Source: Bacilli bacterium
Lineage (GTDB): Bacteria > Bacillota_I > Bacilli_A > ML615J-28 > CAG-698
Direction: 5' to 3'
NCBI GenBank assembly: GCA_050174575.1
Contig: JBFXJT010000007.1
Location: 6,648-70,647 of the forward strand
DNA: 64,000 nucleotides
Below the pieces are notes generated by a model, which was not told the DNA's origin, made no database searches, and saw only the letters and a program-made list of their open reading frames with translations. Positions 3,618 through 44,436 of the stretch are shown here, one piece after another. Both the position numbers and the translations under genes were made by a program. Positions within the stretch are counted from its first letter, which is position 1, and every line of letters starts with the position of its first letter.

Positions 3618-3620
3618 GTT

Positions 3621-7885: not shown

Positions 7886-7911
7886 ACTAAACTCCTTTGG
7901 AAAAAGTATCC

Positions 7912-16015: not shown

Positions 16016-16016
16016 A

Positions 16017-16922: not shown

Positions 16923-17002
16923 AAAATTTAAAACTGTTGTTTTCCCTGCATTTTTTGCATTGCCAACTGTACAAATTACTTGATAATCTTCAAGTAATGA
17001 AG

Positions 17003-18259: not shown

Positions 18260-18262
18260 AAT

Positions 18263-20127: not shown

Positions 20128-20507
20128 GTTTTCCTCTGAAGAGCTTTTGGTACAACACAAGTACCCTTTGCAGAAGCAACCAAAATTGGTTCATCTAAAA
20201 AATCAGCTGCTGAAGGAACAATATTTGGTTTAGCTTCGATTACTTTGTAACATGCAAAAGTCATTTTTCTTGAAGTGTTTCCCACTTCAACAATTTCACC
20301 ATGCACTTCCAAAAAGTCACCAGCATAAACCGGAGCCAAAAAATCTACTTGCTCGTAAGCCCGAAATAATCCTTCATCTCCATCATGGCGAATGAGCAAT
20401 TCTGTCGCAACATCGCCAAATAAAGCTAAGATTCGAGCTCCATCCACAAGATTTCCTCCATAATGGGCATCGCTTAAGGACATTCGTAAACGGATTATTG
20501 TTTTCAT
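20115..20507 (-). CDS. kal: 3-aminobutyryl-CoA ammonia-lyase (hotdog fold).
   Basis: 130-aa hotdog-size protein located between kce and the CoA-transferase genes, as in Fusobacterium/Clostridium lysine clusters. Confidence 0.75.
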
Positions 20508-22516: not shown

Positions 22517-24157
22517 TTAATCGTTTTGTTTGGTAAGATAGAAATATTTAGTATCCGCTTCAGCCATATGACCAACAATAAAATTATCTACTAAAAACGA
22601 TGCTAAAACGATACTTTTTATTTCACCATTTTGATATTTCTTTTTCATATCATTTGCTTTTAAAATAATGTCGCGATGCAGAGCACAATGTTCATCATAA
22701 TTAGGATAATCTAAATTATACATTACTTTTTCTTCAAAATAAAAATGTTGAGAAATGTGTTTGATGATTTTTTCAATTTGATTGATAATTTTTTCATAGG
22801 GAACATTTGTTTGAAACATAAAAATTAAGTTGTTTCCCAATTCAATAATCTCTCGATGTTGATTATCTATATCAACATTGCCACTACTCCATTCATTATG
22901 CCATTCAAAATACGGTGAAGTTGATAAAGATTCCATGGAGAGGCTCTCTGAAGAGCTTGCCACACGGTTACGTCCCTGTTCTTTTGCACAGTACATTGCA
23001 TCATCCGTACGTTTATACCAACTTCTTAATGACTCGTTAGGAATCATTTGGGCAACACCAAAACTTGCCGTTAATTTGGAAATAATGGGAAACCTGAAAC
23101 CTGCAACAGCAATTCGAATTTTATCAGCAACTTTTACAGCATCTTCCACTTTTGTATCTGGCAATACGATAACAAATTCTTCGCCTCCAAGACGAGACAA
23201 ATAGTCTGTTTTTCTAATTGATGATTTTAACAGTTGGGAAAAACTTACTAAAATATCATCACCAACAGGATGGCCCCAAGTATCATTTACAAATTTAAAA
23301 TGATCAATATCAGCAATAATCATTGATAAAGGCAAAGCTGTATTGTTGGCTTTTTCCATTGTTTCATTAGTAATTTTATGAAAGAAGTGACGATTGTAAA
23401 GTCCGGTAAGGTTATCAATTGTCATTTCAAATTCAAGACGGTTAGCTAATTCTACTGTTTTAGTGATATCGCGTGCAGACGCATAAATAAATCTTCCAAA
23501 TTGTTTTGCCCGCCACTCTAAAAAATGATATTGTCCATTTTTATCTTTATAACGATTAACAAAATTATTAATTTCTTCACCCTTAAGTAAATTTTTCATC
23601 ACTTCTCTTGTAGAAGAAATATCTTCCTCATGCATAAATTCAAAAAAAGTACGGGTTGTTAAATCAGCAAAGTTGGCTCCAACTAGGTTTTCAAAATAAT
23701 CATTTGTTTTAATAAAATGACCATCCATATCTGAGACCACTAAAAGGTCAAGGTTAACATCGATTAATCCTTTTAATAATTCCTCTTCTTTCATGGTTTT
23801 AGTGATATCTTCATAAAAGCAACCAAAGTGATGACAATCAATGGGAAAGATGGTTGCTTTAACCCATGAATGATTAATAGGTAAAAAGCAATTGCATGTT
23901 TTAACCTCTTTTTGATTTACTGCTTTCCTAAAGTTTTGATACCATTCATTGTTAAAATGATTATTAACATTTGCTGTTGATAAATAACTTTTTCCTATTA
24001 ATGCTTCTTTTGGAAGTGGAATAAACCGTTCAAACGCTTCGTTTACTCCGGAAAAATAGTAGTCAACAGGTTCTTGTTTTTCGTTAAAGATAATTTCATG
24101 AAAAGAACAAGGAATAGGAGATTCTTTAAAAAAGTCTAAAAAATTACAGTTATTCAT
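22517..24157 (-). CDS. Diguanylate cyclase with N-terminal PAS domain(s), a GGDEF domain (GGEEF) and a C-terminal bacteriohemerythrin domain.
   Basis: 546 aa. RLGGEEFVIVLPD is the active site. The C-terminus carries FEWHNEWSSGNVDIDNQHREI, HFYFEEKVM...YPNYDEHCALHRDII and LVDNFIVGHMAEADTKYF, matching the hemerythrin His/Glu/Asp iron ligands. Confidence 0.8.
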   Translation of the reverse strand: MNNCNFLDFFKESPIPCSFHEIIFNEKQEPVDYYFSGVNEAFERFIPLPKEALIGKSYLSTANVNNHFNNEWYQNFRKAVNQKEVKTCNCFLPINHSWVKATIFPIDCHHFGCFYEDITKTMKEEELLKGLIDVNLDLLVVSDMDGHFIKTNDYFENLVGANFADLTTRTFFEFMHEEDISSTREVMKNLLKGEEINNFVNRYKDKNGQYHFLEWRAKQFGRFIYASARDITKTVELANRLEFEMTIDNLTGLYNRHFFHKITNETMEKANNTALPLSMIIADIDHFKFVNDTWGHPVGDDILVSFSQLLKSSIRKTDYLSRLGGEEFVIVLPDTKVEDAVKVADKIRIAVAGFRFPIISKLTASFGVAQMIPNESLRSWYKRTDDAMYCAKEQGRNRVASSSESLSMESLSTSPYFEWHNEWSSGNVDIDNQHREIIELGNNLIFMFQTNVPYEKIINQIEKIIKHISQHFYFEEKVMYNLDYPNYDEHCALHRDIILKANDMKKKYQNGEIKSIVLASFLVDNFIVGHMAEADTKYFYLTKQND

Positions 24158-28757: not shown

Positions 28758-29284
28758 AAAAAATAATATTATTCCTCCTTTTTGTTAGTTTACTTGCTAT
28801 CGTTGGTTGTACAATTGGTGAAAACACAACTGTTAAAATGTCTTTAAAGTCTGGTATCGATACAGTTGAAATTAATAGCGAATATGTTGATCCAGGTGTC
28901 AAAGCAACTTTTGGTTTATTGAGCCTTGATGTCAAGGTCGTTTCTTCAACCGTCAACACCCAAATGCTCGGGGCTTATGAAATTGTTTATGAAGCTAGTT
29001 ATAACGGTATTTTTAAAACAATTACACGAATAGTGACTGTAATTGATGATACTGCCCCTATTATTTACTTAAATCCTGGTGTTGACACTATTTTAATCGG
29101 TGAAAATTGGGTTGACGCTGGTGTTACGATAACCGACAATAGCAATGTTGTGATTGACCCCATCATAACTGGAGAAATTAACAATCAAGTTGTTGGTGAT
29201 TATGAAATTGTTTATCAAGCAAAAGACTCAAGCAACAATATTAATCAAATTATCCGTATAGTTCATGTTATTGATAACGAATAA
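28754..29284 (+). CDS. Lipoprotein with two Ig-like DUF5011-type domains.
   Basis: Lipobox LLAIVGC. Two repeats of SGIDTVEIN..YVDPGV / PGVDTILIGENWVDAGV. Overlaps the protease stop (ATGA). Confidence 0.6.
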   Translation: MKKIILFLLFVSLLAIVGCTIGENTTVKMSLKSGIDTVEINSEYVDPGVKATFGLLSLDVKVVSSTVNTQMLGAYEIVYEASYNGIFKTITRIVTVIDDTAPIIYLNPGVDTILIGENWVDAGVTITDNSNVVIDPIITGEINNQVVGDYEIVYQAKDSSNNINQIIRIVHVIDNE

Positions 29285-29289
29285 AAAAA

Positions 29290-29306
29290 GGTCCGATTTT
29301 CGGACC
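29290..29306. terminator. Bidirectional intrinsic terminator between convergent genes.
   Basis: GGTCCG-ATTTT-CGGACC hairpin flanked by A-run and T-run. Confidence 0.6.
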
Positions 29307-29309
29307 TTC

Positions 29310-30254
29310 TCACATTAAATTATTTATTTCATCTAAGGTAGGAAGGGCATCAATTGCCCCTTTTTTTGTTGTCACTAACGCGCCTGAAATATTACCAAAC
29401 CGTAAAATTTGTACAATTTGCTCATCAGTTAAATCATCAATATCTAATTTGTCTAAATTGACTAAAACACCAGCATAGAAAGCGTCTCCTGCACCCGTTG
29501 TATCAATTGGTTTTACAATAATTGATGGTACTTTGAGCAAGCGCCCATGGTGAAAAAAAACAGAGCCATCTTTTCCCAAAGTCAAAAAGACTATTTGGTT
29601 TTTTGTTGTGAGTTTCATCAATCCTTTTTCTAAATCTGTTTCACCAGTAAATAAAATTAATTCGTCTTGAGATATTTTTAAATAATCTGCCTTTTTTGCG
29701 TAATATGTATAAATGTTAATTGCTGTTTGCGCATCAACGAATAAATCATCGCGATAGTTAACATCAAAACTTAATGATTTATGGCTTTTTTTCACAAGTT
29801 TAATAATGTGATTTGCAAGTTCTCTTCCTTTTGGTTCGCTTAACAGTAATGAACCAAGATGAACAATATCAGCTTGTTTGATGGCTTCTAAGCTGGTTTT
29901 GGGGATATGAAAATCCGCTTGGTTTTTGTGATAAAAACTAAAGTGGCGTTCGCCATCATCGTCATTCGCAACAAATGCTAAAGTAGTATTGTGAAATGGA
30001 TCTTCCGTAATTAATGTTTTAGAAAAAGGAATTTTAGATGCAAAATCAATTAAAAATTGACCCATCAAATCAACTCCGACATTTCCAACGAACTGAACAT
30101 TTCCTCCATACTTAGCAATGCCACAAGCAACATTAAAAGGAGCTCCACCCGCAAATGTTTGATAAGACATCGTGTTATTAACTTTTTGACCTATTAAATC
30201 AACAAGGATTTCGCCAATACAGACTATCATTTGTTTCTCCTTAAGTTGTTTCAC
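29310..30254 (-). CDS. PfkB-family sugar kinase, probable fructokinase.
   Basis: 314 aa with the C-terminal DTTGAGDAFYAGVL anion-hole motif. Last gene of the fructan locus. Confidence 0.75.
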   Translation of the reverse strand: MKQLKEKQMIVCIGEILVDLIGQKVNNTMSYQTFAGGAPFNVACGIAKYGGNVQFVGNVGVDLMGQFLIDFASKIPFSKTLITEDPFHNTTLAFVANDDDGERHFSFYHKNQADFHIPKTSLEAIKQADIVHLGSLLLSEPKGRELANHIIKLVKKSHKSLSFDVNYRDDLFVDAQTAINIYTYYAKKADYLKISQDELILFTGETDLEKGLMKLTTKNQIVFLTLGKDGSVFFHHGRLLKVPSIIVKPIDTTGAGDAFYAGVLVNLDKLDIDDLTDEQIVQILRFGNISGALVTTKKGAIDALPTLDEINNLM

Positions 30255-31203
30255 CTAAAATTAAATTAGTTGGAACAAAAATGAATTCTTCCGATGTTTC
30301 ATGATTAATTCGTAATATCAGTTGATTAACAATGGCAACGGCAAGAGCTTCAATATCTTGTTTGACAACAGTAAATTTAGGATGTTGTAAAATCTCATCC
30401 ATGACTCCATCAAATGCAATGATTTTGATTTCTTCAGGAACTTTTTTTCCAAGTTGAGTAGCTATCTGAAAGCAAGTATTGGCAAAGGTATCACTTTGGG
30501 CAAAAATTCCGTCCAATGTTGGGTTCTCTTGCATAAATTGTTTTGCAACAACAAATTCTTCACCATGATATACATTCTTATAACAAGAAGTCGGAACCAT
30601 ATTATATTTTTGCATTACATCCAAATAAGCAAAGTAACGTTTTTGTGTTTCTGAAGGAGCAGTGGACATACCACCAATATAGCCAATGTGATGACACCCT
30701 TTTTGGACAAGATGCTCAATGGCTTTAAAAGTACTTTCATAATTATCACTTGTAACACAAGGAACGTTGTCGAGATGACGATCCAAAGTCACTATGTTTA
30801 GCCCTTTGAAATCAACATCCTGATATAAGTGATTGGTGATGAAAATAATCCCGTCGACTTGTCCTGTCTTAATCATATTCAATAAATGAACTTCTTTATC
30901 TCTTTTTCCTTGAGAACTGACAATAATCATTTTGAAACCTTTTTTATACAAGTAATCCTCAATGTAAAAAGCAATTTTACTAAAGAAAACGTGACTAATG
31001 GTTGGAACAAATAGGGCAACTAATCCAGATCTTTGTGCCTGTAGATTTCGCCCTAATTGATTAGGAATGTAATTGAGTGCTTTAATTGCATCTTCTATTT
31101 TTTTTCGCGATTCTTCAGATACATAACCGTTTTTATTAATGTATCGCGAAACAGTTCCCATGCCAACCCCAGCTCGTTTTGCAACTTCTTTCATTTGGGC
31201 CAA
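30241..31203 (-). CDS. LacI-family transcriptional regulator.
   Basis: N-terminal HTH MKEVAKRAGVGMGTVSRYIN and a periplasmic-binding-protein-like effector domain. Confidence 0.85.
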   Translation of the reverse strand: MAQMKEVAKRAGVGMGTVSRYINKNGYVSEESRKKIEDAIKALNYIPNQLGRNLQAQRSGLVALFVPTISHVFFSKIAFYIEDYLYKKGFKMIIVSSQGKRDKEVHLLNMIKTGQVDGIIFITNHLYQDVDFKGLNIVTLDRHLDNVPCVTSDNYESTFKAIEHLVQKGCHHIGYIGGMSTAPSETQKRYFAYLDVMQKYNMVPTSCYKNVYHGEEFVVAKQFMQENPTLDGIFAQSDTFANTCFQIATQLGKKVPEEIKIIAFDGVMDEILQHPKFTVVKQDIEALAVAIVNQLILRINHETSEEFIFVPTNLILGETT

Positions 31204-31290
31204 GGTAGTCGCCTCCTAACATGTTTTCATAAACTATATTATATCACTACGTACTACTATTTTTTAACCGTTTTTCGAAATATTGTAATG

Positions 31291-31339
31291 AAAGTAGTTC
31301 TTTCATGGATGATTAACATCATTTTGAAAGAACTACTTT
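31291..31339 (-). other. Long interrupted stem-loop between the CBM lipoprotein gene and lacI.
   Basis: Perfect 15-nt arms AAAGTAGTTCTTTCA / TGAAAGAACTACTTT, with a nested ATGAT-taac-ATCAT hairpin in the loop. Weak U-tract. Confidence 0.4.
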
Positions 31340-31353
31340 ATTATTAAACAACC

Positions 31354-34098
31354 TTATCCCATTTGATTAGTAATTGTTTGCCATGGAATATTGTGTGTTC
31401 GTTCGACAGTCCATTGATCGCTCGTATCTTTACTGTAAAGAGTTACGGTATCAAAGCCATTAGCAATATCTGGAGTAACTGCATAGTATGTTACAACTTC
31501 ATCAAAGAAGGCAACAGCCCAACCAGCTACTTCAATATCACAAAGTTCCAAATACAATTCCTGGCCTAAGTAAGCACTTAAATCAATAAAATATGTCCCC
31601 ATATCTGCCCATGATCCACCTAAATCTACACTTGGGAAATTGGTATCGCTAAAACGATTTTGTTTATATAAACCAATTTGTGTCCCGTCAGCTAAATAAA
31701 CTTTTACAGCTGCAGCATTAGCACCCATTTTTAAAGAAATAAAGCCTGTTCCGTGAAGAGTAAAATTGGTTGAGCGTAATGAATATTGCTCGCTTTCCGC
31801 AACACCTGAAGTCCATCCGTCAAAGTGATAATCACCGCTTTGGTTATATGGTAATTTTTCATTCCAATAATGTGTTTGACTTATAACAGCATTAACTGTA
31901 ACTTTTTCAGAAGTCCAACCAGTCATATCACCAGTTTCAAAACCTCCATTGATAATTAAACCATTATTGCCCATTTCCCATTCGATATTAACATCTGGTT
32001 CTTGGACACTGTCTTTTGTAGAACCAGCAACAGTATCAAAGCCATTTGCAACATCAGGAACAGTTGTATGATAGAAATTAATATCATCAAAGAAAGAAAC
32101 TGCCCAACCAGCTGTAGCTGGATCATCAATCAATTCAACATAAACTTTTTCGCCTAAATAAGCCGATAAGTCCGCAAAGTAACGTGTCATGGTCGCTAAA
32201 CGTCCACCATTAGCAAGGTATGGGAAATCAAAATCTTTGAAACGATAATTTGTGAAATAACCGATGACTGTTCCATCTTCTTTTACAACACGAACAGCGG
32301 CAGCTTTTCCACCCATCATGAAGGAAACCCAACCAGTACCAGATAATGTAAATAATCCAGAGCGTAAAGTATAACCAGCTGATTCCACGCTTGTTGCTGT
32401 CCAACCATCAAAATGGTAATTTCCTTGTTGGTTATAAGCAATCATTTCGCCCCAGAAAGTTTCTGCGCTTAAGGCACCATTAATTATATCGCCAAAAACA
32501 ACACTCCAACCAGTCATATCACCTGTTTCAAATCCACCGTTTGCGACATTGGTATCGGCAGAAACGACAACATTGAATGTGCTCGTAACTGTTTCGCTTT
32601 CATAAGTTGTCCCATAATGAACAACATATGTTCCTTCTTGATCAAAATCAAAAGCATCAAATCCTGTTGTAAACTCTGTTTCGCCTAAAACAACTTTTGT
32701 AATGACAGCTGGTACAGCCGTTTCGCCATAAGTTATCACGACATCAGCCATTAATGCTGTCAAGTTGTAATCATTTACCATCGCCGTTACAAAACCTTCT
32801 GCTTCAGTTTCAATCATTAAGGCAGGTAATTCAAATGGATAATCATAATTTGTATAGTATTCTTGTAAATGAGCTAGCGAATTATATGAATCGGTGTATG
32901 TTTCTGCCATAATTGCTTGGAAAGTAGATTTCATTAAAGCTTTTACTTCAACTTCCGTCATACTAACACGGAAATCATCAGCATTGATGAAAGCAAATCC
33001 GCTACTTGGATTGTTGTCCACAATCGAGATGTACAACACATCGCCAAGGTATTCGGATGCATCAACATAAACGCGACGTAATGTCAATGGTAATCCTGGA
33101 TCGTTAAATGTTGTATTAGTGACTTGGATTAATTCTGCATCTGTTGTTCCGTCATTAATAGAAATATAACAATTTGTTGGCCCAGAACCAATCATAAAGG
33201 AAATCCAACCATCACCGGCTAATGTGAATTTTGTAGAACGGATTGCTCCAACTGCTGATTCGGCAGTAGCTGCATTGTTATTTCCGTCTAAATAATAATC
33301 ACCTTCACCATAAACCATACGATCAGTCCAATAAAATTGTGATGTTGGAACGACAACTGTTCCACCAAATGCTGTACCGCTTAATTGTTTCCAACCAGTT
33401 AAATCACCTGTTTCAAACCCACCATTTGTAATCGTTGTTGATGTTGGGTCTTCTTCAAATTCTGGTTCTCCATAAGCTTCAATTTGGGCATCACGTTCTG
33501 CTTGCATAGCTGTAACTTCTGCTTCAGTCAAACAAACTACAAAATCATCTAAATTGACATAGCCATAATCATCGGTGTTATCACTGTCAGTTACTCTGAT
33601 ATAAATGATTTTATTCAAATGTGCTGATAAATCAACAACTCTTCTGATCATTTGATCAGTAATAAATGGTTCATCATAATCAGTATTCGTTATTTTTAAC
33701 AAAGCCGTGGCATTGTCTTTTTCAAAGAACTCAACAAAAATCTTATCTTGATTTTTTGCAGCTCCCATTTTAAAAGCAATTTTACCAGTTCCAGTTAATT
33801 TAAAGAAAGAAGATGTTAGTGTACCAACCATTTGTTGAGTACCACCATCCGTTCCACTGAACCAAAATTCTCCTGTTTTATCTACAGTAATTCCATTTAC
33901 TTTTAGATCATTAACGATACCGCGAGGACTAAAAGCCGTTTCTGTTTTTGTCCATCCCGTCCAAACTTCTGCTGTTCCAACTTCAAATCCACCGTTTGTA
34001 ATTTGGGTTGGATACTCTTCTTCTTTACCACATGCTGCTAACAATAATAAAGAGAGTGCTAGCATAAATACAAAGGTAAAACGCCATGTTTTTTTCAT
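31354..34098 (-). CDS. Surface lipoprotein built of four tandem CBM-like beta-sandwich modules (putative fructan-binding protein).
   Basis: Lipobox LLLAAC-G. Four approx 200-aa repeats each starting (I/V)xNGGFE(T/V)G(D/T)xTGW and ending Y(G/V)xxDD(F/I). The same module forms the N-terminal domain of the adjacent canonical GH32. Confidence 0.65.
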   Translation of the reverse strand: MKKTWRFTFVFMLALSLLLLAACGKEEEYPTQITNGGFEVGTAEVWTGWTKTETAFSPRGIVNDLKVNGITVDKTGEFWFSGTDGGTQQMVGTLTSSFFKLTGTGKIAFKMGAAKNQDKIFVEFFEKDNATALLKITNTDYDEPFITDQMIRRVVDLSAHLNKIIYIRVTDSDNTDDYGYVNLDDFVVCLTEAEVTAMQAERDAQIEAYGEPEFEEDPTSTTITNGGFETGDLTGWKQLSGTAFGGTVVVPTSQFYWTDRMVYGEGDYYLDGNNNAATAESAVGAIRSTKFTLAGDGWISFMIGSGPTNCYISINDGTTDAELIQVTNTTFNDPGLPLTLRRVYVDASEYLGDVLYISIVDNNPSSGFAFINADDFRVSMTEVEVKALMKSTFQAIMAETYTDSYNSLAHLQEYYTNYDYPFELPALMIETEAEGFVTAMVNDYNLTALMADVVITYGETAVPAVITKVVLGETEFTTGFDAFDFDQEGTYVVHYGTTYESETVTSTFNVVVSADTNVANGGFETGDMTGWSVVFGDIINGALSAETFWGEMIAYNQQGNYHFDGWTATSVESAGYTLRSGLFTLSGTGWVSFMMGGKAAAVRVVKEDGTVIGYFTNYRFKDFDFPYLANGGRLATMTRYFADLSAYLGEKVYVELIDDPATAGWAVSFFDDINFYHTTVPDVANGFDTVAGSTKDSVQEPDVNIEWEMGNNGLIINGGFETGDMTGWTSEKVTVNAVISQTHYWNEKLPYNQSGDYHFDGWTSGVAESEQYSLRSTNFTLHGTGFISLKMGANAAAVKVYLADGTQIGLYKQNRFSDTNFPSVDLGGSWADMGTYFIDLSAYLGQELYLELCDIEVAGWAVAFFDEVVTYYAVTPDIANGFDTVTLYSKDTSDQWTVERTHNIPWQTITNQMG

Positions 34099-34115: not shown

Positions 34116-36164
34116 CTATTTTACAATAATGTCATATTTGCTTATTTGCTTTAATATAGAACTTCCCCCAACAGTGAAAAATTCAATACCAGTGTCATTT
34201 AAGCCTGGGTAAACATTTCCAGTCATCGTAATATAACCATCATTAATAAAGACTTCAACACTGGAAACGTCTAAAAAGATTCGTAATTTTAAAATCCCAT
34301 TATTTAAGGAAACGTCAGCACTCCTAGTTTGACGGTTGATTTCCGCACCACTGATTGTTTCACCTGAATTTCCTCGATCAAAGATAACTGTTTGTGAAAG
34401 AGCATCATAATAAACTAATGTTTCGTTTTCTGTTCCTTTAAACAGTTTCACCCCAACTTTAGATGCAGATCCAACTTCAATTTCAAGTTCCAGTTCAACC
34501 GTCTTACCAGAAATTTGTGGGAGGACTAAGTTTCCATTAATCGTTTTATTTTGATAACTGACTTCATTTTGACGATAATTTTCGATTTCTCTAACTGGGG
34601 CTTGATAAATATGGCCATCTTTATAGGTCAATTCTCTTGGCAAGGTATAAGCACCAACCCAGTTATGCGCTTGTGTGACTAAAGTACGATCCCACATTTG
34701 CATCCATGCTAGCATAATTGTTCGTCCATCAGGCGTTATCATCGTTTGAGCAGCATAGAAATCAAATCCACCGTCAAATTCTTGAAATTCATCATAATTG
34801 AATTTCCCCGTTTGATAATCAATTCCACCAACCATATAAACTACCGAGTGAATATTTTCAAATTTCGTCTTGTCTCTTGGTAAATTTTGTGGACTAACAA
34901 TTAAAATCTCTTGATTATTTAACTCAATAAAATCTGGGCATTCATAAACACCATTTAACTGTAAGAAATTTGGTGCTTGAGGATTGTTATTGTTCATGAC
35001 TTTGCCAACATAATCCCAACTAGTTAAATTGCTCGAACGATAAAGGACAACCATGCCATAGCCATTTGCTTTCGTACCGATCAAACAATAATAATATCCA
35101 TCATGATAAAACACTTTTGGATCACGAAAATCAGCTGTTGATACACCGATTGGTACCTCAATTGTAGAAATAACTGGATTACGGGTTAATTTTTCAAAAT
35201 TAATCCCATCTTCGGACACTGCTAGATTTTGTGTTTGTTGATTATTGGCTACGCCAGTATACATGAGGTATAATTTCCCATCTTTTTCAATAGCCGTCCC
35301 ACTAAAGCACCCAAAATCTTGATCATATTTTTGATCGGGAGCTAAAGCTACAGGCTGTAATTCCCACTTAACAAAATCCTTCGTTGTTTGATGCCCCCAA
35401 TGCATTGGGCCCCAACTGCTGGCATAAGGGTTAAATTGGTGAAACAAATGACCTTCACCATTAAACCAAATTAATCCGTTGGGATCATTACTCCATCCTA
35501 TTGGAGATGCAGCATGATAAGTATGACGGTAAGTTGGGTTTACAGTATTAAGATTTTCAAGAACATATTGATATGCATCGTGTACTTTTCCCACTTGATC
35601 TTCAACTCCTTGATAATTAACGATAAAATCGTCAACATTGATGTAATTATAGTTATCGGTATTATTATCATTATCAATAATTTTTATTTGAACTGTTTTT
35701 CCAATATGACTACTTCCATCCAATATGACCCGATGGAGAGTATTTGGACTGCTTTCATCAAAATTTAAATTAGCGCGTGTTGCTAATTCATTCCCTCTTG
35801 AGTCAATTAAAGAAACATAACATAAGTCGACATTTGCTCCACCGCTAATCAAAAATCCGATTTTTCCATTCCCTTTTAATTGAAATTTTTCACTTAACAT
35901 AAAACCGGTTTTACTTAAGCCTGCTTTTTTACCATAAAAGAGAAATTCTCCCGTTTGGTTAAAGCGATTGCCATTTTCATCTTTGTCATTAAGAACAACA
36001 CCAGCATCAGTAAAAGCATCACCGTCTTCTTCCCAGTTTTTTAAGGTACCACTTTCAAAACTAGCGTTTAAAAAGGAATATTCGCCATCCACAGTTTGAT
36101 TACATCCTCCTAATATCATGATGAAAGAAAGAAGGATAGCAATCAAAAGCCATTTATTCTTCAT
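34116..36164 (-). CDS. Extracellular GH32 beta-fructofuranosidase/fructanase lipoprotein with an N-terminal CBM-like module.
   Basis: Lipobox ILGGC-N. Canonical GH32 catalytic motifs GWSNDPNG, FRDPKV, ECPDF. C-terminal GH32 beta-sandwich. Confidence 0.85.
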   Translation of the reverse strand: MKNKWLLIAILLSFIMILGGCNQTVDGEYSFLNASFESGTLKNWEEDGDAFTDAGVVLNDKDENGNRFNQTGEFLFYGKKAGLSKTGFMLSEKFQLKGNGKIGFLISGGANVDLCYVSLIDSRGNELATRANLNFDESSPNTLHRVILDGSSHIGKTVQIKIIDNDNNTDNYNYINVDDFIVNYQGVEDQVGKVHDAYQYVLENLNTVNPTYRHTYHAASPIGWSNDPNGLIWFNGEGHLFHQFNPYASSWGPMHWGHQTTKDFVKWELQPVALAPDQKYDQDFGCFSGTAIEKDGKLYLMYTGVANNQQTQNLAVSEDGINFEKLTRNPVISTIEVPIGVSTADFRDPKVFYHDGYYYCLIGTKANGYGMVVLYRSSNLTSWDYVGKVMNNNNPQAPNFLQLNGVYECPDFIELNNQEILIVSPQNLPRDKTKFENIHSVVYMVGGIDYQTGKFNYDEFQEFDGGFDFYAAQTMITPDGRTIMLAWMQMWDRTLVTQAHNWVGAYTLPRELTYKDGHIYQAPVREIENYRQNEVSYQNKTINGNLVLPQISGKTVELELEIEVGSASKVGVKLFKGTENETLVYYDALSQTVIFDRGNSGETISGAEINRQTRSADVSLNNGILKLRIFLDVSSVEVFINDGYITMTGNVYPGLNDTGIEFFTVGGSSILKQISKYDIIVK

Positions 36165-38544
36165 CCAGTGTTACCTCTTCATAAATTGATTTCATTGTTT
36201 TGACAGTCATTTGGTTTATGTTGACTTCACCATTTTCTGAAAACAAGAGTAACCCTAAAGATGAAGGATCGGGATAAATACGGGCAGAAATAGCTTTTTC
36301 ATTGTTGAAAAAAGCTTCAATTAAAGAACGGTCGAGGTAAATATCCATGACTAAAATATTATTATCTAAAACAAATGAGCCATAGAAATTTCCTGAAATG
36401 TTTTGGTTATCGCTTAATGCACCACTTAAACCTGTTTTTACTCCTAAGGTTTTTAATGTCTCATTAAAATAAAGCGTTGTTTCTTCTAACGTAGTGGCGT
36501 TCTTGCGAACTTTTATTCCAAACAAAGTAGCATTAATGTTTTCAAATTCTACGTGAATATAAAGCATGTCACCCTTTACATCAGTTAATAGGGTGTTGGC
36601 TTCACTGATGGACTTATTGCTCATTGTGACTAATGTCTCTTGGTAATAGTCTTCTAGTGCGGATACTGGGCGAATCATTAAATCCGTTCCGTCACTGTTT
36701 AAATAAACTTCTCTAGCCAGTCCAACACAGTTTGCCCACCCAGATAAATAGACATCCGATGGTTTCCTTTGATCCTGCATGATACTGAAAAGATAAGTTT
36801 TTTGGGAAACTGGATCAATAAAACCTGAAGGGCCAGTAAAAACATTATTACCATAATCAAGTAGTCTTGGAGTCGTCCCAAAAGCAGGATCGGGAATAAA
36901 ACGACCAGCAGTTTTATCGAAAGTACCAAGCCAATAATAAATATCATTATCGGCACTGTCAGCAGGAGCAGGACTAATAATCAACATATATTTTGTAATT
37001 GTTTTACTTTCGTTTGTTACGGGAAGCATAATCGGAAGTTCCCAAACAGGCCCTAAATCGGCAGGTTGATTGACTTGTTCGTACAATTGCCCTTTGTAGG
37101 TCCAATTATTAAACGAGTCATCCTTTGTTGTATAAAGTAAAGCTGTCCCACCAGTATTGATTTTGGTACTTGATGATCCAATTAGTAAAAACCAAGTATC
37201 TTCTTCTTGCCAAACATGGGCATCACGAAATTGTCCCGATGCTCCTTGACCAGCTACTTGTTTAATAGCTAATTCATCATCGATTACCCATTCTGTTAAG
37301 TAGGGATCGGTTGGATCTTTGGGCCTAGCAATACCAATGTTTTGATTGCTTATCAAACCATCTTTTTGATAAGAGTCATTTCCAGCAGTAAATAGTAAGA
37401 CGGGAATGCCTTCATTATCATAAGTTACACCACCGCTCCATACACCATCCGGACAAACGGAATCAGCTGTTGGGGTGATAACTTCTTTTAATGGACGCCA
37501 ATTAACCATATCATCACTGATTAAATGCCCCCATCCAATATTGCGAAAATAAGGGCCAAACATATTGAATTGGAAAAATAAGTGATAATACCCATTGTAA
37601 TACATTGGAGCATGAGGTTCATTCATCCAGTGTTGATAAGGACCACCATGATATTGTGTTTTATAAAAATCATCTGTCAGAATATTTTGTAACCAAATAT
37701 CCTCAAAAGCAATTTCCGGAACTGTCTTACTTTCGTAAACTTGCTTTACATCATTTGCTTGTAAACTGGCTTCATAGACTTTTAACTCATCAATCAATCC
37801 ACTTACCATATTTAAAGTTGCCGTAGCATTCGAACCTGGATAACTATTACGAGCAATGAGGAAGGGTTCGCCCGACGCTCCCATAATGGTTGCCCCTTCG
37901 AAAAAATAATCAATGTTGACTAATTCGCCATTTAAATATATGGCCATTTCGCCTTGATCACCATCGAAGGTTGCCACAATATGATTCCATTCATATTTTT
38001 TAAGGGGATTACCTTCATCCCATAAAGTTAACCATCGGTCACCAAGACCTACTTGAAAGCTCCAAGAACCATGGCGTTGATAGCCAAGAATAAATCCTTG
38101 GTTTTCACTTTTATTGTGTTGAGAAACAATCGCTGTTAATTTATCAGTTCCATTGTCTTTGGCATTGGGATCGTCCCACTCAAAGGCCCTTGGAGCAATC
38201 CAAACACTAATTGATAATTTTGAACCGCGAATTTTTAAATCTTCTTCTTGATAACGGATAAAATTAGAATATCCATCAAACAATAAGGAGCCATTATTGA
38301 TCCCTGTTGCGCGCCACTGTGGATCCTCAGGATTTTCCATAAAGCTAGGGTTTGTGAAAACATAAGCAACAGTCGCTGGAGCTTCGTTTTTCGAAGCATC
38401 ATTCACTTTGTTGCCCTGACCTTCATCAAAAGTTAAATGTAACAATAAATCTTTTGTATAAGGGTCGCTCTTTCCACATGCATATAAACTTGAAACAATG
38501 AATAATAGGAAAAAAATAGTCAATAGTTTTTTTGTTATCATCAT
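36154..38544 (-). CDS. Lipoprotein: LamG-like lectin domain plus divergent GH32-like beta-propeller plus GH32 C-terminal beta-sandwich.
   Basis: Lipobox LYAC-G. Motifs HWMNEPHA (replacing WMNDPNG), FRDAHVW (RDP-like), VWELP (replacing WECP). C-terminal DRSLIEAFFNN...ARIYP matches the GH32 C-terminal domain. Confidence 0.7.
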   Translation of the reverse strand: MMITKKLLTIFFLLFIVSSLYACGKSDPYTKDLLLHLTFDEGQGNKVNDASKNEAPATVAYVFTNPSFMENPEDPQWRATGINNGSLLFDGYSNFIRYQEEDLKIRGSKLSISVWIAPRAFEWDDPNAKDNGTDKLTAIVSQHNKSENQGFILGYQRHGSWSFQVGLGDRWLTLWDEGNPLKKYEWNHIVATFDGDQGEMAIYLNGELVNIDYFFEGATIMGASGEPFLIARNSYPGSNATATLNMVSGLIDELKVYEASLQANDVKQVYESKTVPEIAFEDIWLQNILTDDFYKTQYHGGPYQHWMNEPHAPMYYNGYYHLFFQFNMFGPYFRNIGWGHLISDDMVNWRPLKEVITPTADSVCPDGVWSGGVTYDNEGIPVLLFTAGNDSYQKDGLISNQNIGIARPKDPTDPYLTEWVIDDELAIKQVAGQGASGQFRDAHVWQEEDTWFLLIGSSSTKINTGGTALLYTTKDDSFNNWTYKGQLYEQVNQPADLGPVWELPIMLPVTNESKTITKYMLIISPAPADSADNDIYYWLGTFDKTAGRFIPDPAFGTTPRLLDYGNNVFTGPSGFIDPVSQKTYLFSIMQDQRKPSDVYLSGWANCVGLAREVYLNSDGTDLMIRPVSALEDYYQETLVTMSNKSISEANTLLTDVKGDMLYIHVEFENINATLFGIKVRKNATTLEETTLYFNETLKTLGVKTGLSGALSDNQNISGNFYGSFVLDNNILVMDIYLDRSLIEAFFNNEKAISARIYPDPSSLGLLLFSENGEVNINQMTVKTMKSIYEEVTLDEE

Positions 38545-38555
38545 CTTTTTCCCTC

Positions 38556-40904
38556 CTAGATTGTTTTCATTTTAATTACTTGCAAAACATCAACCATAAT
38601 TTGACCATCAGCAAATAACGACATTTCCGATGCATTGTTATAAACCATCGCCGTCAATGTTTGATACCCATTGATGTATATTTCAATCATTGCTCCATCA
38701 ATAAATATTTCTAAATCTAATACTTCCCCAGGAAGAAGAGAAATTCCTCCCCCAAAGATTCCTTTCACAACACTATTTCCAGAATTAGTTGTATCAATTG
38801 AAATAAATTGATCGATTGCGTTATAATTTAGGACTGTCTTTCTCCCTAGTTGATCTTCTTTTAAAGTAAGTCCAAAATTTTGAGAATTTTCATTAGTTAA
38901 TTGAACATGCAAGTATAACTGATTGCCGACCACTGATGCTAAAGCTTGGTTTGCAAATTCAATATTAGTATCTTTTTTATCAACAATGACATCAGTTTTT
39001 AAATTATTTAATTCGTTTAAAGGGGTAATTTTTAAACTGCCGGCATCATCAAGTGACAATTGACGAGGAATACCAGCAGTATGGGCCCATCCTGCATCAT
39101 AATCTTGATGACCATTTCGTTGGCCTTGAATAATGCTACAAATTAAAACACGTCCTGTTAGGGGATCCGTCGAAACCGTTGGCCCCGTAAACACATTGTT
39201 CCCAAAATCCATTAATTTTGGATCTTCATGTTCAGGAATAAAAGTCATCGTTGTTTTATCGAAGTCCCCCAAATAATAGTAAATATCATTATCCGCACCA
39301 GAACCCGCGGGAGAAAACGCAAATATATACTTAGAAACTGTTTTATTAGCGTTCGTTATTTTCGCAAGATTTACTAATTCCCATGTCGTACCCATATAAT
39401 TATGATAAACAGAAGGCATGAACAGTTCGCCTTGATAATCCCAATTCAAAAAAGAATCGTCTTGAGTTGTAAATACTTGGGCAGTTCCTTTATTATCATA
39501 ACGAGCAGATCCGACAAACATGTAGTAAGTTCCATCTTCAAAATAAATATTTGGATCACGAAATTCGTTTGTTTTGGCCATTGATGGTGTTGAGACGGCT
39601 ACTAATTGATCGCTTACATCCCACTCCGTTAAATCAGGATCGCTTAAATCTTTCGGTATTGCAATGGCGATATTTTGATTGCTCCATTGCCCAAAGCTTT
39701 TGGCATCATCACCGGCTGTAAAAAATAATACGGGTGTTCCATCAGCTTTGTATGACGCTCCTCCCGACCAAATACCATCAGGACAAACAGAATTTTTCAT
39801 AAGAATAATGGCTTCTTTCACATTGCGCCAATTGACCATATCAGGACTTACCCAATGACCCCATGCAATTTGCCGCCAGTATGGCCCAGTAAGATTAAAT
39901 TGATAAAACAAATGGTAATTTCCATTGAAATAAAACAAAGCATGTGGTTCATTCATCCAATGTTGAGGTGGTGAAGCATGATATTGAGGTTTGTATATAT
40001 CATCATCTAGCAATTCGTCATTAAGCCAAGCATCTTTAAAATCAATGGCTTTCATGCGGTTTTTTTGTACAAAACTGTTGTGATAGGCTATTATATCCTC
40101 TTCTTTAATTGATGCTTGGTAAATTTTAAGTTCGTCCATTAAACCATTGAACATATTAATTTCATAAAGGCCTGTTTTTTGGGGAACCTGGCTTTTTCCG
40201 ATATACAAAGATGTATTCGCAGCAATAATCTCGCCAAATACATCATTGTGAAAATTAATTATTTCCCCGTTTTTGTATATCCCCATAAATCCGTTTGTTC
40301 CATCAAAAACAAAGGTAAGATGATTCCAAGTATAACGGTCAAGATCATTCCACTCATTCCAAAGTTTAACCCAGCGATCGCCAAGTCCTATTTGAAAGGA
40401 ATATTCACCATATTTATGCATGCCGATAACAAAACCTTGATTTTCTGACATGATGTATTGCCCTAAAACAACTTGCAAATGCTCCGTTCCGTTAACAACT
40501 GCTCCTGGAACATCCCATTCAAACATCCTTGGGCTAATGAATAAATCAATAGTTAAGTTAGGACCGCTAATTTGAATATCCTGATAATCATATTTTATAT
40601 AATTCGAATAACCATCAAAGGCTAAACATGCACCACTAATTGCTGAATTTGTAATCCAAGTTGGATCAATCGATTGCTTGTATTCAGCATCCGTGAAGAC
40701 ATATTCAATCGTGGCTTTTGTCATTGTTGTTTGTTCAGTAAGTTCGTTACCTTCATTTTCATCAAAAGAAGTTGCAAATATTAATTTATCTTGATAAGGG
40801 TCATGATAATCGTGATAATAAATTGCATCCTCCTCTGTTTTTGCACAACCAATAAAGGCCATCATTAAACAAAAAACTGTGATAATTAATAAACCTTTTT
40901 TCAA
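38556..40904 (-). CDS. Paralogous LamG plus divergent GH32-like lipoprotein.
   Basis: Lipobox FIGC-A. Motifs HWMNEPHA, FRDPNIYF, TWELV. The paralogy is shown by matching blocks in both N-terminal LamG regions (e.g. LAFDGYSNYIKYDYQ / LLFDGYSNFIRYQEE, NGTEHLQ / NGTDKLT) and both GH32-like cores (e.g. YHLFYQFN / YHLFFQFN, DMVNWR in both). Confidence 0.7.
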   Translation of the reverse strand: MKKGLLIITVFCLMMAFIGCAKTEEDAIYYHDYHDPYQDKLIFATSFDENEGNELTEQTTMTKATIEYVFTDAEYKQSIDPTWITNSAISGACLAFDGYSNYIKYDYQDIQISGPNLTIDLFISPRMFEWDVPGAVVNGTEHLQVVLGQYIMSENQGFVIGMHKYGEYSFQIGLGDRWVKLWNEWNDLDRYTWNHLTFVFDGTNGFMGIYKNGEIINFHNDVFGEIIAANTSLYIGKSQVPQKTGLYEINMFNGLMDELKIYQASIKEEDIIAYHNSFVQKNRMKAIDFKDAWLNDELLDDDIYKPQYHASPPQHWMNEPHALFYFNGNYHLFYQFNLTGPYWRQIAWGHWVSPDMVNWRNVKEAIILMKNSVCPDGIWSGGASYKADGTPVLFFTAGDDAKSFGQWSNQNIAIAIPKDLSDPDLTEWDVSDQLVAVSTPSMAKTNEFRDPNIYFEDGTYYMFVGSARYDNKGTAQVFTTQDDSFLNWDYQGELFMPSVYHNYMGTTWELVNLAKITNANKTVSKYIFAFSPAGSGADNDIYYYLGDFDKTTMTFIPEHEDPKLMDFGNNVFTGPTVSTDPLTGRVLICSIIQGQRNGHQDYDAGWAHTAGIPRQLSLDDAGSLKITPLNELNNLKTDVIVDKKDTNIEFANQALASVVGNQLYLHVQLTNENSQNFGLTLKEDQLGRKTVLNYNAIDQFISIDTTNSGNSVVKGIFGGGISLLPGEVLDLEIFIDGAMIEIYINGYQTLTAMVYNNASEMSLFADGQIMVDVLQVIKMKTI

Positions 40905-40916
40905 ATTACCACTTCC

Positions 40917-41843
40917 TTACTTCAATCCAGTAAAAGCGACACCTTCAATAATATATCTTTGAGCAAAAATATAAACTAAGGCGATCGGAATCGTACTAAA
41001 TGTTAAGGATGCCATAACTAAAGAAATATCTTTCGGATTAAAATTATTAATCAACTGTAAAAATACTTGCAAAGGTTGTTGCACTGGATTAGAGAACATT
41101 AATTGTGCAAACACATATTCGTTCCAACTTCCCATAAATGTAAAAATAGCGACTGTTGCAAATACTGGCAATGATAGAGGAACAATAACCTTAAAGAAGG
41201 TTGTTAATTTACTAGCACCATCAACATAAGCTGCTTCTTCTAATTCTTTAGGAATTCCCAAGAAAAAAGCCCGAAACATGAAGATATAAAAGGGACTAAC
41301 AATACCTGGTAATAAATAACCAATGACTCTCAATTCTGCTGTCAATAATCCCAAATTTTTTAAAATAACATACAAAGGAACAATAGAAGTCTCAACAGGA
41401 ACAATTAATATTAAAATAATGATACTAACGATGGTTTTATGACCAGGAAAAACAAAACGAGACAACGCATAACCGGCAAGTGAGTTAACTAATAAAACAC
41501 CTGTAATCGAAATTGTTGCATAAATGACACTGTTAAGAATGGATCTTCCAAAATTATCAAAAGTTGCAAATAAATTTTGATAAGATAAAAACCATTTGCT
41601 GATATTCCAAGTAGCTGGTAAAAAGGTTTTTATGGAATTGATGGAGGCATACACTTCTGCTTGAGTTTTAAAACTATTCGAAAGCATCCATACTACAGGA
41701 AATAAAAAGATAATGCATAGCACGATTAAAAAAATTCTAAATAATGTTTTCGCAATTATTTCACGAACTGAGTAATGTCTTTTTTGTTTTTTAGGCAATT
41801 GTAGTATTGATAATGGAATGTTTTTTCGCTTCTTTTTCATCAT
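40917..41843 (-). CDS. Carbohydrate ABC transporter permease (MalG-like).
   Basis: Six TM helices. EAA loop EEAAYVDGASKLTTFFKVIVP. Start taken at the internal MMKKKRKN to avoid a long overlap. Confidence 0.8.
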   Translation of the reverse strand: MMKKKRKNIPLSILQLPKKQKRHYSVREIIAKTLFRIFLIVLCIIFLFPVVWMLSNSFKTQAEVYASINSIKTFLPATWNISKWFLSYQNLFATFDNFGRSILNSVIYATISITGVLLVNSLAGYALSRFVFPGHKTIVSIIILILIVPVETSIVPLYVILKNLGLLTAELRVIGYLLPGIVSPFYIFMFRAFFLGIPKELEEAAYVDGASKLTTFFKVIVPLSLPVFATVAIFTFMGSWNEYVFAQLMFSNPVQQPLQVFLQLINNFNPKDISLVMASLTFSTIPIALVYIFAQRYIIEGVAFTGLK

Positions 41844-41850
41844 TATCACC

Positions 41851-42783
41851 TCAAATTGTGTTATCTTTCTCAAAGACTTTTCTTAAGGTTAAAGCAATCG
41901 TAGCCATAAAGATGGTATAAATTAAAGCGATGGCACTTGAATAACCAACATCCCGGAAATTAATACCTTGCAAATAAATATAATAAGACATCGTTAAGGT
42001 CCGGTCAATCGGACCTCCTCTTGTCATAATCATTGGTTGGGTAATCAACCTAAATGCCCCAATCATCATTGTAATCAGCACAAATGAGAATGTAGGCTTG
42101 ATGCTAGGAAGGGTAATCCGCCAGAATTGTTGGAATTTATTCGCTCCATCGATGCTTGATGCTTCATACAGCTCTTTTGGAATATTTTTTAGTGCTGACA
42201 AGAAAATTAACATTTGGTAACCTGCTCCCTGCCAAGCAGAAATCATGACAATTAAATCCATGGCTTGTTCGGGATCGCTTAAGAAAAGTTGTCTCGATAA
42301 ACCAATAGTTTCAAGGAGGGCATTTATCAATCCATCTTGCTCATTCAATAAGTTAATCCATAACATCGATGTGACCGCCAATGACAACATTGTTGGCACA
42401 AAGAATGCCCATCTAAAAAAGGTATTTCCCTTCATTGGCTTATTTAAAATCAAGGCTAACAAAAGAGCTGCACCAAGTTGTAACGGAATAACTTTTAAAA
42501 CAAATTCCATTGTGTTTTTAAATGCTTGAAGAAGAATTTTATCTTGAAAGGCATTTTTAAAGTTTGCAAAACCAATAAAAGTTGTATTATTTAACTCTAA
42601 TAAATTGGCATCTGTAAACGAATAGGCTAGAGAAATAACAATGGGCATAATGACAAATATAATTCCTAAAATAACAGCAGGAAGCAAAAAACTCCAACCT
42701 ATAATCGTATCAGAAGTTCGGTATGTTTTCCCAAATAATTTAAAATACATTCGGGTATTTGGTTTTTTTACAGATCCTACCAT
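41851..42783 (-). CDS. Carbohydrate ABC transporter permease (MalF-like).
   Basis: EAA loop ELYEASSIDGANKFQQFWRITLP. Six TM helices. Confidence 0.85.
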   Translation of the reverse strand: MVGSVKKPNTRMYFKLFGKTYRTSDTIIGWSFLLPAVILGIIFVIMPIVISLAYSFTDANLLELNNTTFIGFANFKNAFQDKILLQAFKNTMEFVLKVIPLQLGAALLLALILNKPMKGNTFFRWAFFVPTMLSLAVTSMLWINLLNEQDGLINALLETIGLSRQLFLSDPEQAMDLIVMISAWQGAGYQMLIFLSALKNIPKELYEASSIDGANKFQQFWRITLPSIKPTFSFVLITMMIGAFRLITQPMIMTRGGPIDRTLTMSYYIYLQGINFRDVGYSSAIALIYTIFMATIALTLRKVFEKDNTI

Positions 42784-42793: not shown

Positions 42794-44134
42794 TTAATTG
42801 TCAATTTGAACGACTTGAGTGTCAATGTAATCTTCTAAATTGTATTCTGTTGTTCCATTCATTGTTTCGATGTATTCAATAATTTTACTGTAGCTACTAC
42901 TTACTTTAGGATAGTTGATCATTTTTGGTCGGGGAGTAGCAATTTCTTGTAAAATAGTTGCTAATGAACCTAAAGCTCCCGTTTGGAATCCTGTTAAATC
43001 ATTCAAAAGTGATTTATGGGTTGGAAATGTTCCAATTGATTCATACATTAATTGGCTTCCAGTAACTCCTGTTATATAAGCAACAGCAATCGCTGCTGAA
43101 GCAGGATCGGATGAATTAACCGTTACTCCAAATCCCCATGAACCACAACCAGCAACCGGCGTTCCTTTTGTAGTTTCGTCTTCATAAACAGGCATCGGCA
43201 TAATTCCATAACTTGGAATAAAAGTATTATAATTTTTCTTAATCGTCGAAATATTCCATGGTCCGTGAATTTCAAAAGCGCATTCTCCACCTGCTAAAGC
43301 ATCTGTATTGCTGCCATTGTAAACCCAAGGTTCGCCATCATCATCGGGGTTGAAGAACATTTCTAACATTTTAATTCCTTTAATAGAATTAGAAGAGTTA
43401 AGGGCACCATCAACGACTTCATTGGCGCCAAAGAAACTCCCACCTGAAGAATATATTAATGATGAATATAAATACATGACACCTTCATCGCCACCAAATC
43501 CTAAGTTCAATTTAATTCGATATTCAAGGTTGGCAGCTTTTAGGGCAACCATTGCTTCCATAACATCAAGCCAAGACCAAGGATTAGTAACTGTCCCAAA
43601 ATCTTCTTCATCATAACCAACTTGCTTTAATAAATCCTTATTAAAATACATTCCAGTTGGCGCATCCATACCGGATAAAGCATATAATTTTCCATCAATC
43701 GTACTTTGTTCGATGACGCTGTCAACATAACTCGAAGTAATATCAGTTGTTAAATATTGATCAATCGGTGCTAAAATGCCCGCATCAGCATAAGCAGCTA
43801 TATTAGGGGCATCAACAGCAACAATGTCAGGAAGTCCTCCTGATAGAATTTCCGCGTTGATTGCTGTTTGTAAAGTATCAGAACTGTTTTTAAATTCTAA
43901 TTTCATTTTTAAAATTCTTGTTCCATCAGCAGTTTTTAATTGTTGTTCATTAAACAATTCAGCAATTGTGGAATAAACAATCCCTTCATCTTCTGCTTCG
44001 GATTTATGAACCCAAACCTTAATTACTTTTACCTCGTCCGTATCTTCATCTTCTGCTGGACCACAACCAACAAACACCAAGAAACTAAGCAAAAGTACCA
44101 TAACACTTAAAAAAAGTTTTCCAAAATTTTTCAT
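42794..44134 (-). CDS. Extracellular sugar-binding lipoprotein of the ABC transporter (family 1 SBP).
   Basis: Lipobox FLVFVGC-G followed by an acidic linker. 446 aa, typical of oligosaccharide SBPs. No ATPase gene in the locus. Confidence 0.85.
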   Translation of the reverse strand: MKNFGKLFLSVMVLLLSFLVFVGCGPAEDEDTDEVKVIKVWVHKSEAEDEGIVYSTIAELFNEQQLKTADGTRILKMKLEFKNSSDTLQTAINAEILSGGLPDIVAVDAPNIAAYADAGILAPIDQYLTTDITSSYVDSVIEQSTIDGKLYALSGMDAPTGMYFNKDLLKQVGYDEEDFGTVTNPWSWLDVMEAMVALKAANLEYRIKLNLGFGGDEGVMYLYSSLIYSSGGSFFGANEVVDGALNSSNSIKGIKMLEMFFNPDDDGEPWVYNGSNTDALAGGECAFEIHGPWNISTIKKNYNTFIPSYGIMPMPVYEDETTKGTPVAGCGSWGFGVTVNSSDPASAAIAVAYITGVTGSQLMYESIGTFPTHKSLLNDLTGFQTGALGSLATILQEIATPRPKMINYPKVSSSYSKIIEYIETMNGTTEYNLEDYIDTQVVQIDN

Positions 44135-44293: not shown

Positions 44294-44436
44294 CTAGTTG
44301 CTTTTATTTTAAACCACCCCGTTTTTTTTGTCAAGCGTTTTCTTTTATTATTTTTTAAAAATAAAAAATACTATGGCGTTTCCCATAGTATCTAAAAACT
44401 GATTGTTATTCTCTTCTTATTTTCTTAATAATTTAA

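Follow-up and report, generated by a model that had tools for sequence, protein, structure and literature searches.

Introduction

Fructans (inulin, fructo-oligosaccharides and levan) are among the most widely used prebiotics, and the capture of the polymer before its hydrolysis is much less described for Gram-positive gut and rumen bacteria than for the levan utilisome of Bacteroides. Among the Gram-positive gut bacteria, a stand-alone, non-catalytic surface array of carbohydrate-binding modules (CBMs) that aids polysaccharide capture by separate enzymes is represented by Sas6 of Ruminococcus bromii, which carries CBM26 and CBM74, and the CBM66 of the Bacillus subtilis exo-levanase SacC, which has a Laminin_G_3/ConA-like fold, is a fructan-binding accessory module of glycoside hydrolase family 32 (GH32) enzymes. 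The family that concerns us here is CBM38 (formerly X39), which is given in PMC10076258 as residues 32-389 of the 1333-residue cycloinulo-oligosaccharide fructanotransferase (CFTase) of Paenibacillus macerans (AAG47946.1) and as two beta-sandwiches; the same article reports low micromolar binding of inulin and levan by this region, citing Lee, Kim and Choi 2004. In this work, we analyzed a stretch of 64,000 nucleotides of a Bacilli bacterium (assembly GCA_050174575.1, contig JBFXJT010000007.1, positions 6,648 to 70,647; hereafter the window) and in particular the gene on its minus strand at 31354..34098. The product is a 914-residue non-catalytic protein with a lipoprotein signal peptide and four modules assigned by sequence similarity to CBM38, and it probably captures fructans for the GH32 enzymes encoded beside it. 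In the literature that we searched, no paper was found on stand-alone CBM38 proteins or on Gram-positive non-catalytic surface proteins that bind fructans.

Results

Architecture of the 914-residue lipoprotein

The open reading frame (ORF) was confirmed exactly at 31354..34098 on the minus strand; it starts with ATG, has an AGGAG Shine-Dalgarno sequence 7 nt upstream of the start codon, and encodes 914 residues. The N-terminus of the protein, MKKTWRFTFVFMLALSLLLLAAC followed by GKEEE, is a typical lipoprotein signal peptide (residues 1-23, 34030..34098, minus strand, ending in LLAAC), with a positively charged n-region, a hydrophobic core, and a lipobox (L-A-A-C) that fits the pattern [LVI][ASTVI][GAS]C within the first 15-35 residues. 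These are the features expected of an Lgt/Lsp lipoprotein, and Cys23 is the predicted lipidation site. This cysteine is at least 90% conserved among 53 aligned homologues, and of the 120 closest homologues, 110 contain a cysteine in a lipobox-like setting. No catalytic domain was found by Pfam, NCBIfam, or PDB sequence searches; in the same searches the protein matched no family above threshold and no PDB chain, and the sub-threshold matches were confined to the N-terminal NGGFE motif. A full-length AlphaFold2 model built with 53 homologues (mean predicted local distance difference test score, pLDDT, 90.6; predicted template modelling score, pTM, 0.69) accounts for the entire chain as the signal peptide, four all-beta modules and a spacer.

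The modules, all on the minus strand, were delimited as A (residues 28-205, 33484..34017, followed by a helix at residues 192-209), B (residues 218-392, 32923..33447), C (residues 513-706, 31981..32562) and D (residues 710-905, 31384..31971). Between B and C lies a spacer of 120 residues (393-512; 32563..32922, minus strand), consisting of two helices and a small beta-sandwich according to DSSP of the model. This spacer is unrelated to the modules (z below 1 in local alignments against shuffled controls) and has no Pfam match even at E 10. The NGGFE motif occurs at residues 35, 225, 520, and 717, so that the modules start 190, 295, and 197 residues apart. In local alignments, the four modules score 13 to 71 standard deviations (SD) above shuffled controls against each other, with the value of 71 obtained between C and D, and 7 to 30 SD above controls against residues 22-200 of the GH32 enzyme encoded at 34116-36164 (enzyme 1 below). 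Module A and the N-terminus of this enzyme share 32% identity (BLASTP, E 9e-24). Both the repeats and their sharing with enzyme 1 are therefore well beyond chance. The motif DDF closes only modules A and B, while module C ends in DDI and module D in DEV.

These results agree with the preliminary description of the sequence in most respects: it had predicted a surface lipoprotein of 914 residues without a catalytic domain, with a module common to the N-terminus of the neighbouring GH32 enzyme, and all of this holds, with lipidation and surface exposure as predictions. Its four repeats of about 200 residues with an NGGFE...DDF signature are indeed four homologous modules, of about 180 residues, that carry NGGFE, but the DDF end is limited to two of them. 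Its statement that the protein is made only of such modules proved wrong, as the spacer between the second and the third shows.

Assignment of the modules to CBM38

A structure prediction and fold search of one repeat, which had been proposed earlier as a check, were carried out. Module B modelled alone has a pLDDT of 94, and its fold is a CBM-type beta-jelly roll, with which Foldseek agrees. The solved structures with the closest folds are binders of porphyran, galactan, glucans, and xylan, and MAM domains, reelin subrepeats, and Cry/Vip3 toxin domains are scattered among the matches. When the full-length model was used, the Foldseek matches were multi-jelly-roll proteins of a generic kind (reelin, Cry protoxins, MAM-domain proteins), which told little more than the fold class.

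The family was identified through the CFTases. A search seeded with a GH32 protein carrying four modules (P0138) returned two of them at about 61% identity over 85-97% of the query, namely the enzyme of Niallia (Bacillus) circulans (O52973/BAA24360.1, 1503 residues) and that of Paenibacillus polymyxa (QDY82655.1, 1333 residues, in a cluster that includes AAL82574.1/Q8RLU3). By hmmsearch, the module profile matches the N. circulans CFTase at 57-226, 241-408, 424-556, and 1332-1491 and the P. polymyxa CFTase at 76-244, 259-393, and 1169-1328, with E-values over these repeats of 1e-17 to 1e-47. Residues 518-789 of the 914-residue protein align with CFTase residues 78-324 at 38% identity (BLASTP, E 9e-40). 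The first N-terminal CFTase repeat (N1; P. polymyxa 76-244, 171 aa) is the best match of module C at 46% identity, of module D at 40%, and of module A at about 30%; module B matches N1 and the C-terminal repeat at 38% and 37%, and the N-terminus of GH32 enzyme 1 is closest to the C-terminal repeat at 36%. Module C is thus the one nearest to the experimentally defined inulin-binding region. On the basis of this similarity to the N- and C-terminal CFTase repeats, of the modelled beta-sandwich fold with about 170-180 residues per unit, and of the occurrence together with GH32 catalytic domains, we assign the modules to the CAZy family CBM38, an inulin/levan-binding module.

Published domain boundaries fit this assignment. 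The dbCAN coordinates of CBM38 in a Defluviitalea GH32 protein are 44-189, 221-367, 409-527, and 1313-1448 (PMC7355431), and the module-profile matches in the similarly built P0138, at 39-208, 220-391, 402-555, and 1331-1491, track them closely, the fourth pair differing by about 20-40 residues. 'CBM38' has also been reported by dbCAN in GH32 proteins of Pseudoalteromonas and Bacteroides (PMC13000452, PMC9458734), and in the Pseudoalteromonas enzyme it is described as an insertion between blades IV and V of the catalytic propeller (PMC13000452/PMC9458734). Sequence and profile searches found no solved CBM38 structure among the PDB sequences; because of this and of the confident models, single modules are good crystallisation targets.

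The preliminary description had placed the modules in the style of families 4/9/22/66, of which the CBM-type jelly roll stands and the family membership does not. Pfam CBM_4_9 (CBM4/9/16/22), similar in fold, was rejected at 16.8 bits against a cut-off of 25.9 and covered profile positions 2-31 only. CBM66 was rejected as well: the modules have no Laminin_G_3/ConA-like match, CBM66 is not among the top fold matches, and the CBM66-like Laminin_G_3 domain (Pfam) of this locus is found on its other two GH32 enzymes rather than on the 914-residue protein. In the whole-protein family search, NTTRR-F1 scored 51.7 against a cut-off of 70 and was confined to the N-terminal NGGFE motif, and the module profile gave marginal motif matches only against the PDB (8xmz at 0.03, CBM61 at 0.14). 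The likeness in sequence to CBM4/9/16/22/61-type jelly rolls and to the porphyran-binding CBM 8xmz is limited to the first 25-45 residues of the modules, and the ligands differ.

Distribution and recurrent association with GH32

An exhaustive search of the module profile against 1.84 billion cluster representatives (clusters at 50% identity) gave 1955 clusters at E ≤ 1e-3, 298 of them with E ≤ 1e-30; the proteins have 380 to 3900 residues and 2 to 10 copies of the module each. Relatives of the 914-residue protein itself made up 444 of 8,000 scored candidates at E ≤ 0.001 in a database clustered at 90% identity, and a 'hypothetical protein' from the metagenome-assembled genome (MAG) of a Bacilli bacterium has the same sequence as the window protein. 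None of the 120 closest homologues contains a Pfam domain, and those with a name are all called 'hypothetical protein'. Three modules are present in 89 of them, four in 26, and five in 5, and the core order in this stand-alone family is an A-type module, a B-type module, the spacer, and then one or more C-type modules. Most organisms with a member of this family are uncultured Oscillospiraceae, Lachnospiraceae, Christensenellaceae, Clostridia, and Bacilli sampled from gut and rumen. Relatives are encoded at 209 genome loci, in MAGs of Oscillospiraceae, Lachnospiraceae, Christensenellaceae, and Bacilli, and the samples came from humans, mice, rabbits, chickens, and ruminants. The stand-alone family is widespread in gut and rumen Firmicutes.

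The association with GH32 recurs at two levels. Within proteins, no catalytic domain other than GH32 accompanies the module recurrently: among 35 long module carriers scanned with Pfam, GH32 was present in 12 and Laminin_G_3 in 12, Big_2, SLH, or FIVAR domains occurred in some, and no glycoside hydrolase family other than GH32 was matched. In Paenibacillus, proteins of 1922 and 2266 residues carry the modules on the N-terminal side of Laminin_G_3, GH32, and SLH domains. At the level of neighbourhoods, GH32 is encoded within 8 kb at 74 of 80 genome loci encoding relatives, and five of the six remaining loci are short (4.5-10 kb); GH32, LacI, PfkB, and ATP-binding cassette (ABC) transporter genes are the neighbours of the homologues.

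Some unusual proteins were seen in the course of this survey. Two giant proteins, P0125 (3900 residues) and P0145 (3220 residues), carry up to 10 CBM38-like modules. In a Paenibacillus sinensis locus (L054), an 844-residue ORF at 1909-4443 fuses a PfkB kinase (residues 22-329) to a complete GH32 (residues 354-823); this unusual fusion adjoins a giant CBM38-GH32-SLH protein, and directly downstream of the gene for the latter, at 14679-16427, a DUF2961 protein is encoded. The DUF2961 family has since become GH172 and has been connected with difructose-anhydride and alpha-fructofuranoside metabolism. Together with the CFTase-like enzyme, the DUF2961 protein hints at a metabolism of cyclic or anhydro-fructans at this locus.

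A probable fructan operon in the window

The gene of the 914-residue protein closes a compact series on the minus strand, in which the intergenic gaps are 10-17 nt or the genes overlap. The series begins with an extracellular solute-binding protein (SBP) of the SBP_bac_1 family (42794..44134, Pfam) and continues with two ABC permease genes of the BPD_transp_1 family (40917..42783, Pfam) and three GH32 genes. Enzyme 3 (38556..40904, 782 residues, lipobox-like FIGC) and enzyme 2 (36154..38544, 796 residues, lipobox-like LYAC) combine a CBM66-like Laminin_G_3 domain with GH32, whereas enzyme 1 (34116..36164, 682 residues, lipobox ILGGC) combines one CBM38 module (residues 22-200, 35565..36101, minus strand) with the GH32 N- and C-terminal domains and is exo-type beta-fructofuranosidase-like. 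Compared with the PDB, the GH32 enzymes of the locus are relatives of exo-type beta-fructofuranosidases, which does not decide between inulin and levan. All three bear lipoprotein-type signals (ILGGC, LYAC, FIGC), and thus the whole extracellular fructan apparatus appears to be lipid-anchored, not secreted or wall-anchored.

After a gap of 150 nt past the CBM38 gene follow, also on the minus strand, a LacI-family regulator (30241..31203, Pfam) and a fructokinase-like PfkB-family sugar kinase (29310..30254, Pfam). A scan for promoters and terminators gave no more sites in total than expected by chance, and only the positions of the best ones are suggestive. The best sigma-70-like promoter match of the region (44306..44334, minus strand, 11/12, a consensus match only) lies upstream of the SBP gene and is preceded by a terminator-like hairpin (44366-44393), a second promoter-like site with an extended -10 (31238-31267) belongs to the LacI gene, and another terminator-like hairpin (29285-29311) follows the kinase gene. 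These positions fit a single operon, which is suggestive. Directly past the stop codon of the CBM38 gene and ahead of the LacI promoter-like site, a perfect AT-rich inverted repeat of 15 bp with a 19-nt loop, AAAGTAGTTCTTTCA ... TGAAAGAACTACTTT (31291..31339, minus strand), was read by eye; the terminator scan did not call it, and it is possibly a weak terminator or an operator.

Other genes of the window

Beyond the fructan genes, the window holds a lysine-fermentation cluster (13732-20160) with the alpha and B12-binding beta subunits of D-lysine 5,6-aminomutase, the radical SAM enzyme lysine 2,3-aminomutase, BKACE (beta-keto acid cleavage enzyme), and a dehydrogenase-like gene. An alpha-glucan/glycogen group (1126-9375), comprising a GH13 alpha-amylase, a glycogen/maltodextrin phosphorylase, and a GH77 4-alpha-glucanotransferase, adjoins a GH9 protein with a CelD_N Ig-like domain. 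Further candidates for surface proteins, at 11753-13435 and 26073-29284, are a BspA-type leucine-rich-repeat protein, a subtilase that contains four Listeria-Bacteroides repeats, and the product of a small ORF overlapping the stop codon of the subtilase, which has bacterial surface Ig-like domains. The protein encoded at 22517-24157 combines PAS, GGDEF, and hemerythrin domains and is possibly an oxygen- or iron-sensing diguanylate cyclase.

Discussion

We consider it likely that the 914-residue protein is a non-catalytic, lipid-anchored, and polyvalent fructan-capture protein serving the three GH32 lipoproteins and the ABC importer. The jelly-roll fold, the CBM38 homology, the partnership with GH32, and the conserved neighbourhood agree with each other on this point and with the preliminary description, which had proposed multivalent capture feeding the GH32 enzymes and the importer; from them we infer sugar binding and its specificity, surface exposure, and cooperation with the enzymes for these modules. 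The protein would be exported by the Sec pathway, lipidated at Cys23, and cleaved, so that it hangs from the outer face of the cytoplasmic membrane. Each of the four CBM38 jelly rolls would bind beta-fructan chains (inulin and/or levan), and the four together would give avidity for the polymer and hold it beside the three lipid-anchored GH32 enzymes. These enzymes, of which one bears CBM38 and two bear a CBM66-like domain, would break down the captured polymer, and its products, fructose and short fructo-oligosaccharides, would be taken up by the SBP and the two-permease ABC importer. The PfkB kinase would then phosphorylate fructose, and the LacI-family regulator may control the whole pathway.

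Several points weigh against this proposal. A thick cell wall, if present, may let a membrane-tethered protein reach the outside only partly. The published CBM38 binding data, cited here second-hand from PMC10076258, cover only the N-terminal two-module region of one CFTase, and in our comparison the P. polymyxa and N. circulans homologues stood in for the founding sequence AAG47946.1. Modules A and B are only 26-38% identical to the CFTase repeats. The residues kept without exception in modules of every type (N, F, E, W, G, S, F, G, G, D, D) resemble the N/E...D pattern found in CBM4/6/22-type jelly rolls and thus probably serve the structure and not the specificity. Binding competence of each of the four modules is predicted from homology, and either inulin or levan may be preferred.

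The same array could instead be read as an adhesin that attaches the cell to a levan-rich biofilm matrix or to fructan-bearing plant particles, with the feeding of enzymes being secondary. Polyvalent CBM arrays do give avidity for insoluble or matrix-bound polymer, relatives reach 10 copies in proteins of 3900 residues, some of them contain Big_2, FIVAR, or SLH domains, and the window encodes other surface proteins (the BspA-type leucine-rich-repeat protein and the subtilase with Listeria-Bacteroides repeats). However, the position of the gene as the final cistron of a catabolic operon and its conservation beside GH32, ABC, LacI, and PfkB genes, with GH32 at 74/80 loci, argue for a role in the catabolic pathway; we therefore regard adhesion as an unlikely main function, while adhesion and capture are not mutually exclusive. 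It is quite unlikely that the modules bind a glycan other than fructan, or that they have lost binding and serve as spacers projecting other surface machinery. Jelly-roll CBM families are often polyspecific, the ligands of the nearest solved folds range from porphyran and galactan to glucans and xylan, and the identity to the tested CFTase region is only 26-46%, but GH32 was the sole catalytic partner found, the 35 long proteins matched no further glycoside hydrolase family, and the modules are well conserved, with a mean column identity of 53% in the alignment across homologues. As the sole function, either of these explanations is disfavoured by the repeated association with GH32 and by the place of the gene in the operon.

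Two further explanations are such that nothing supports them. In the one, which we hold to be very unlikely, the protein is a scaffold or regulatory subunit whose module-module contacts with the GH32 lipoproteins or the SBP organise a surface complex without sugar binding. GH32 enzyme 1 does bear the same module, and the pTM of the full-length model may suggest some fixed inter-domain packing, but the homologous CFTase region is reported as a sugar-binding module in PMC10076258. In the other, an unrecognised enzyme acting on fructans would be hidden in the protein, perhaps in residues 393-512 or in a module that has been modified. Although the 393-512 region has no database match and the fold searches also returned jelly-roll domains located inside enzymes, it comprises just about 120 residues of helices and a small beta-sandwich, Pfam, NCBIfam, and PDB searches gave no catalytic match, and the locus already encodes three GH32 enzymes, so that a hidden activity appears extremely improbable.

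Fructan capture by a lipid-anchored array thus remains the reading that we prefer, and it can be extended tentatively. We speculate that stand-alone CBM38 lipoproteins may form a conserved class of Firmicute surface glycan-binding proteins with three to five modules, required for growth on polymeric fructans, in which the differentiated module types would recognise different features (e.g., inulin versus levan, or chain ends versus internal residues). Such proteins could form a surface complex with the GH32 lipoproteins and the SBP and play the role that the utilisome has in Bacteroidota. Once recognised as polyvalent CBM38 proteins, the members of this family can be annotated, their binding becomes a testable hypothesis, and they can serve to mark extracellular fructan degradation in the genomes of Firmicutes.

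Proteins of the Sas6 type differ from the 914-residue protein in their starch ligand, in their CBM families, and in anchoring by dockerin and cohesin rather than by lipid. The preliminary description had likened it to SusE/F-type proteins, and here the functional analogy holds: SusE/SusF and the surface glycan-binding proteins (SGBPs) of Bacteroidota, such as BT1761 of the levan polysaccharide utilization locus, are likewise lipid-anchored, non-catalytic, and built of tandem beta-sandwich glycan-binding domains, and their genes likewise lie inside a glycan utilization locus beside enzymes and a transporter. Homology was rejected, as the Pfam scan gave no Sus family and no relationship in sequence or fold was found, and the two are unrelated; the Pfam scan of the window ORFs shows an ABC importer at the locus but no TonB-dependent transporter. 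The closest relatives are the GH32 CFTases of Paenibacillus macerans, P. polymyxa, and Niallia circulans, whose CBM38 (also called IBM) belongs to the same module family, with units of about 170-180 residues, tandem arrangement, beta-sandwich fold, and association with GH32. In CFTases and other GH32 enzymes, which are secreted or S-layer-anchored, the modules extend the catalytic domain, whereas the 914-residue protein carries four of them, together with an extra spacer domain, on a separate, enzyme-free, and lipid-anchored polypeptide. The CBM38 module itself is known, and what we did not find described in the literature searched is an architecture in which several CBM38 units are detached from the enzyme, lipid-anchored, and encoded by a separate and conserved gene in the fructan loci of Firmicutes.

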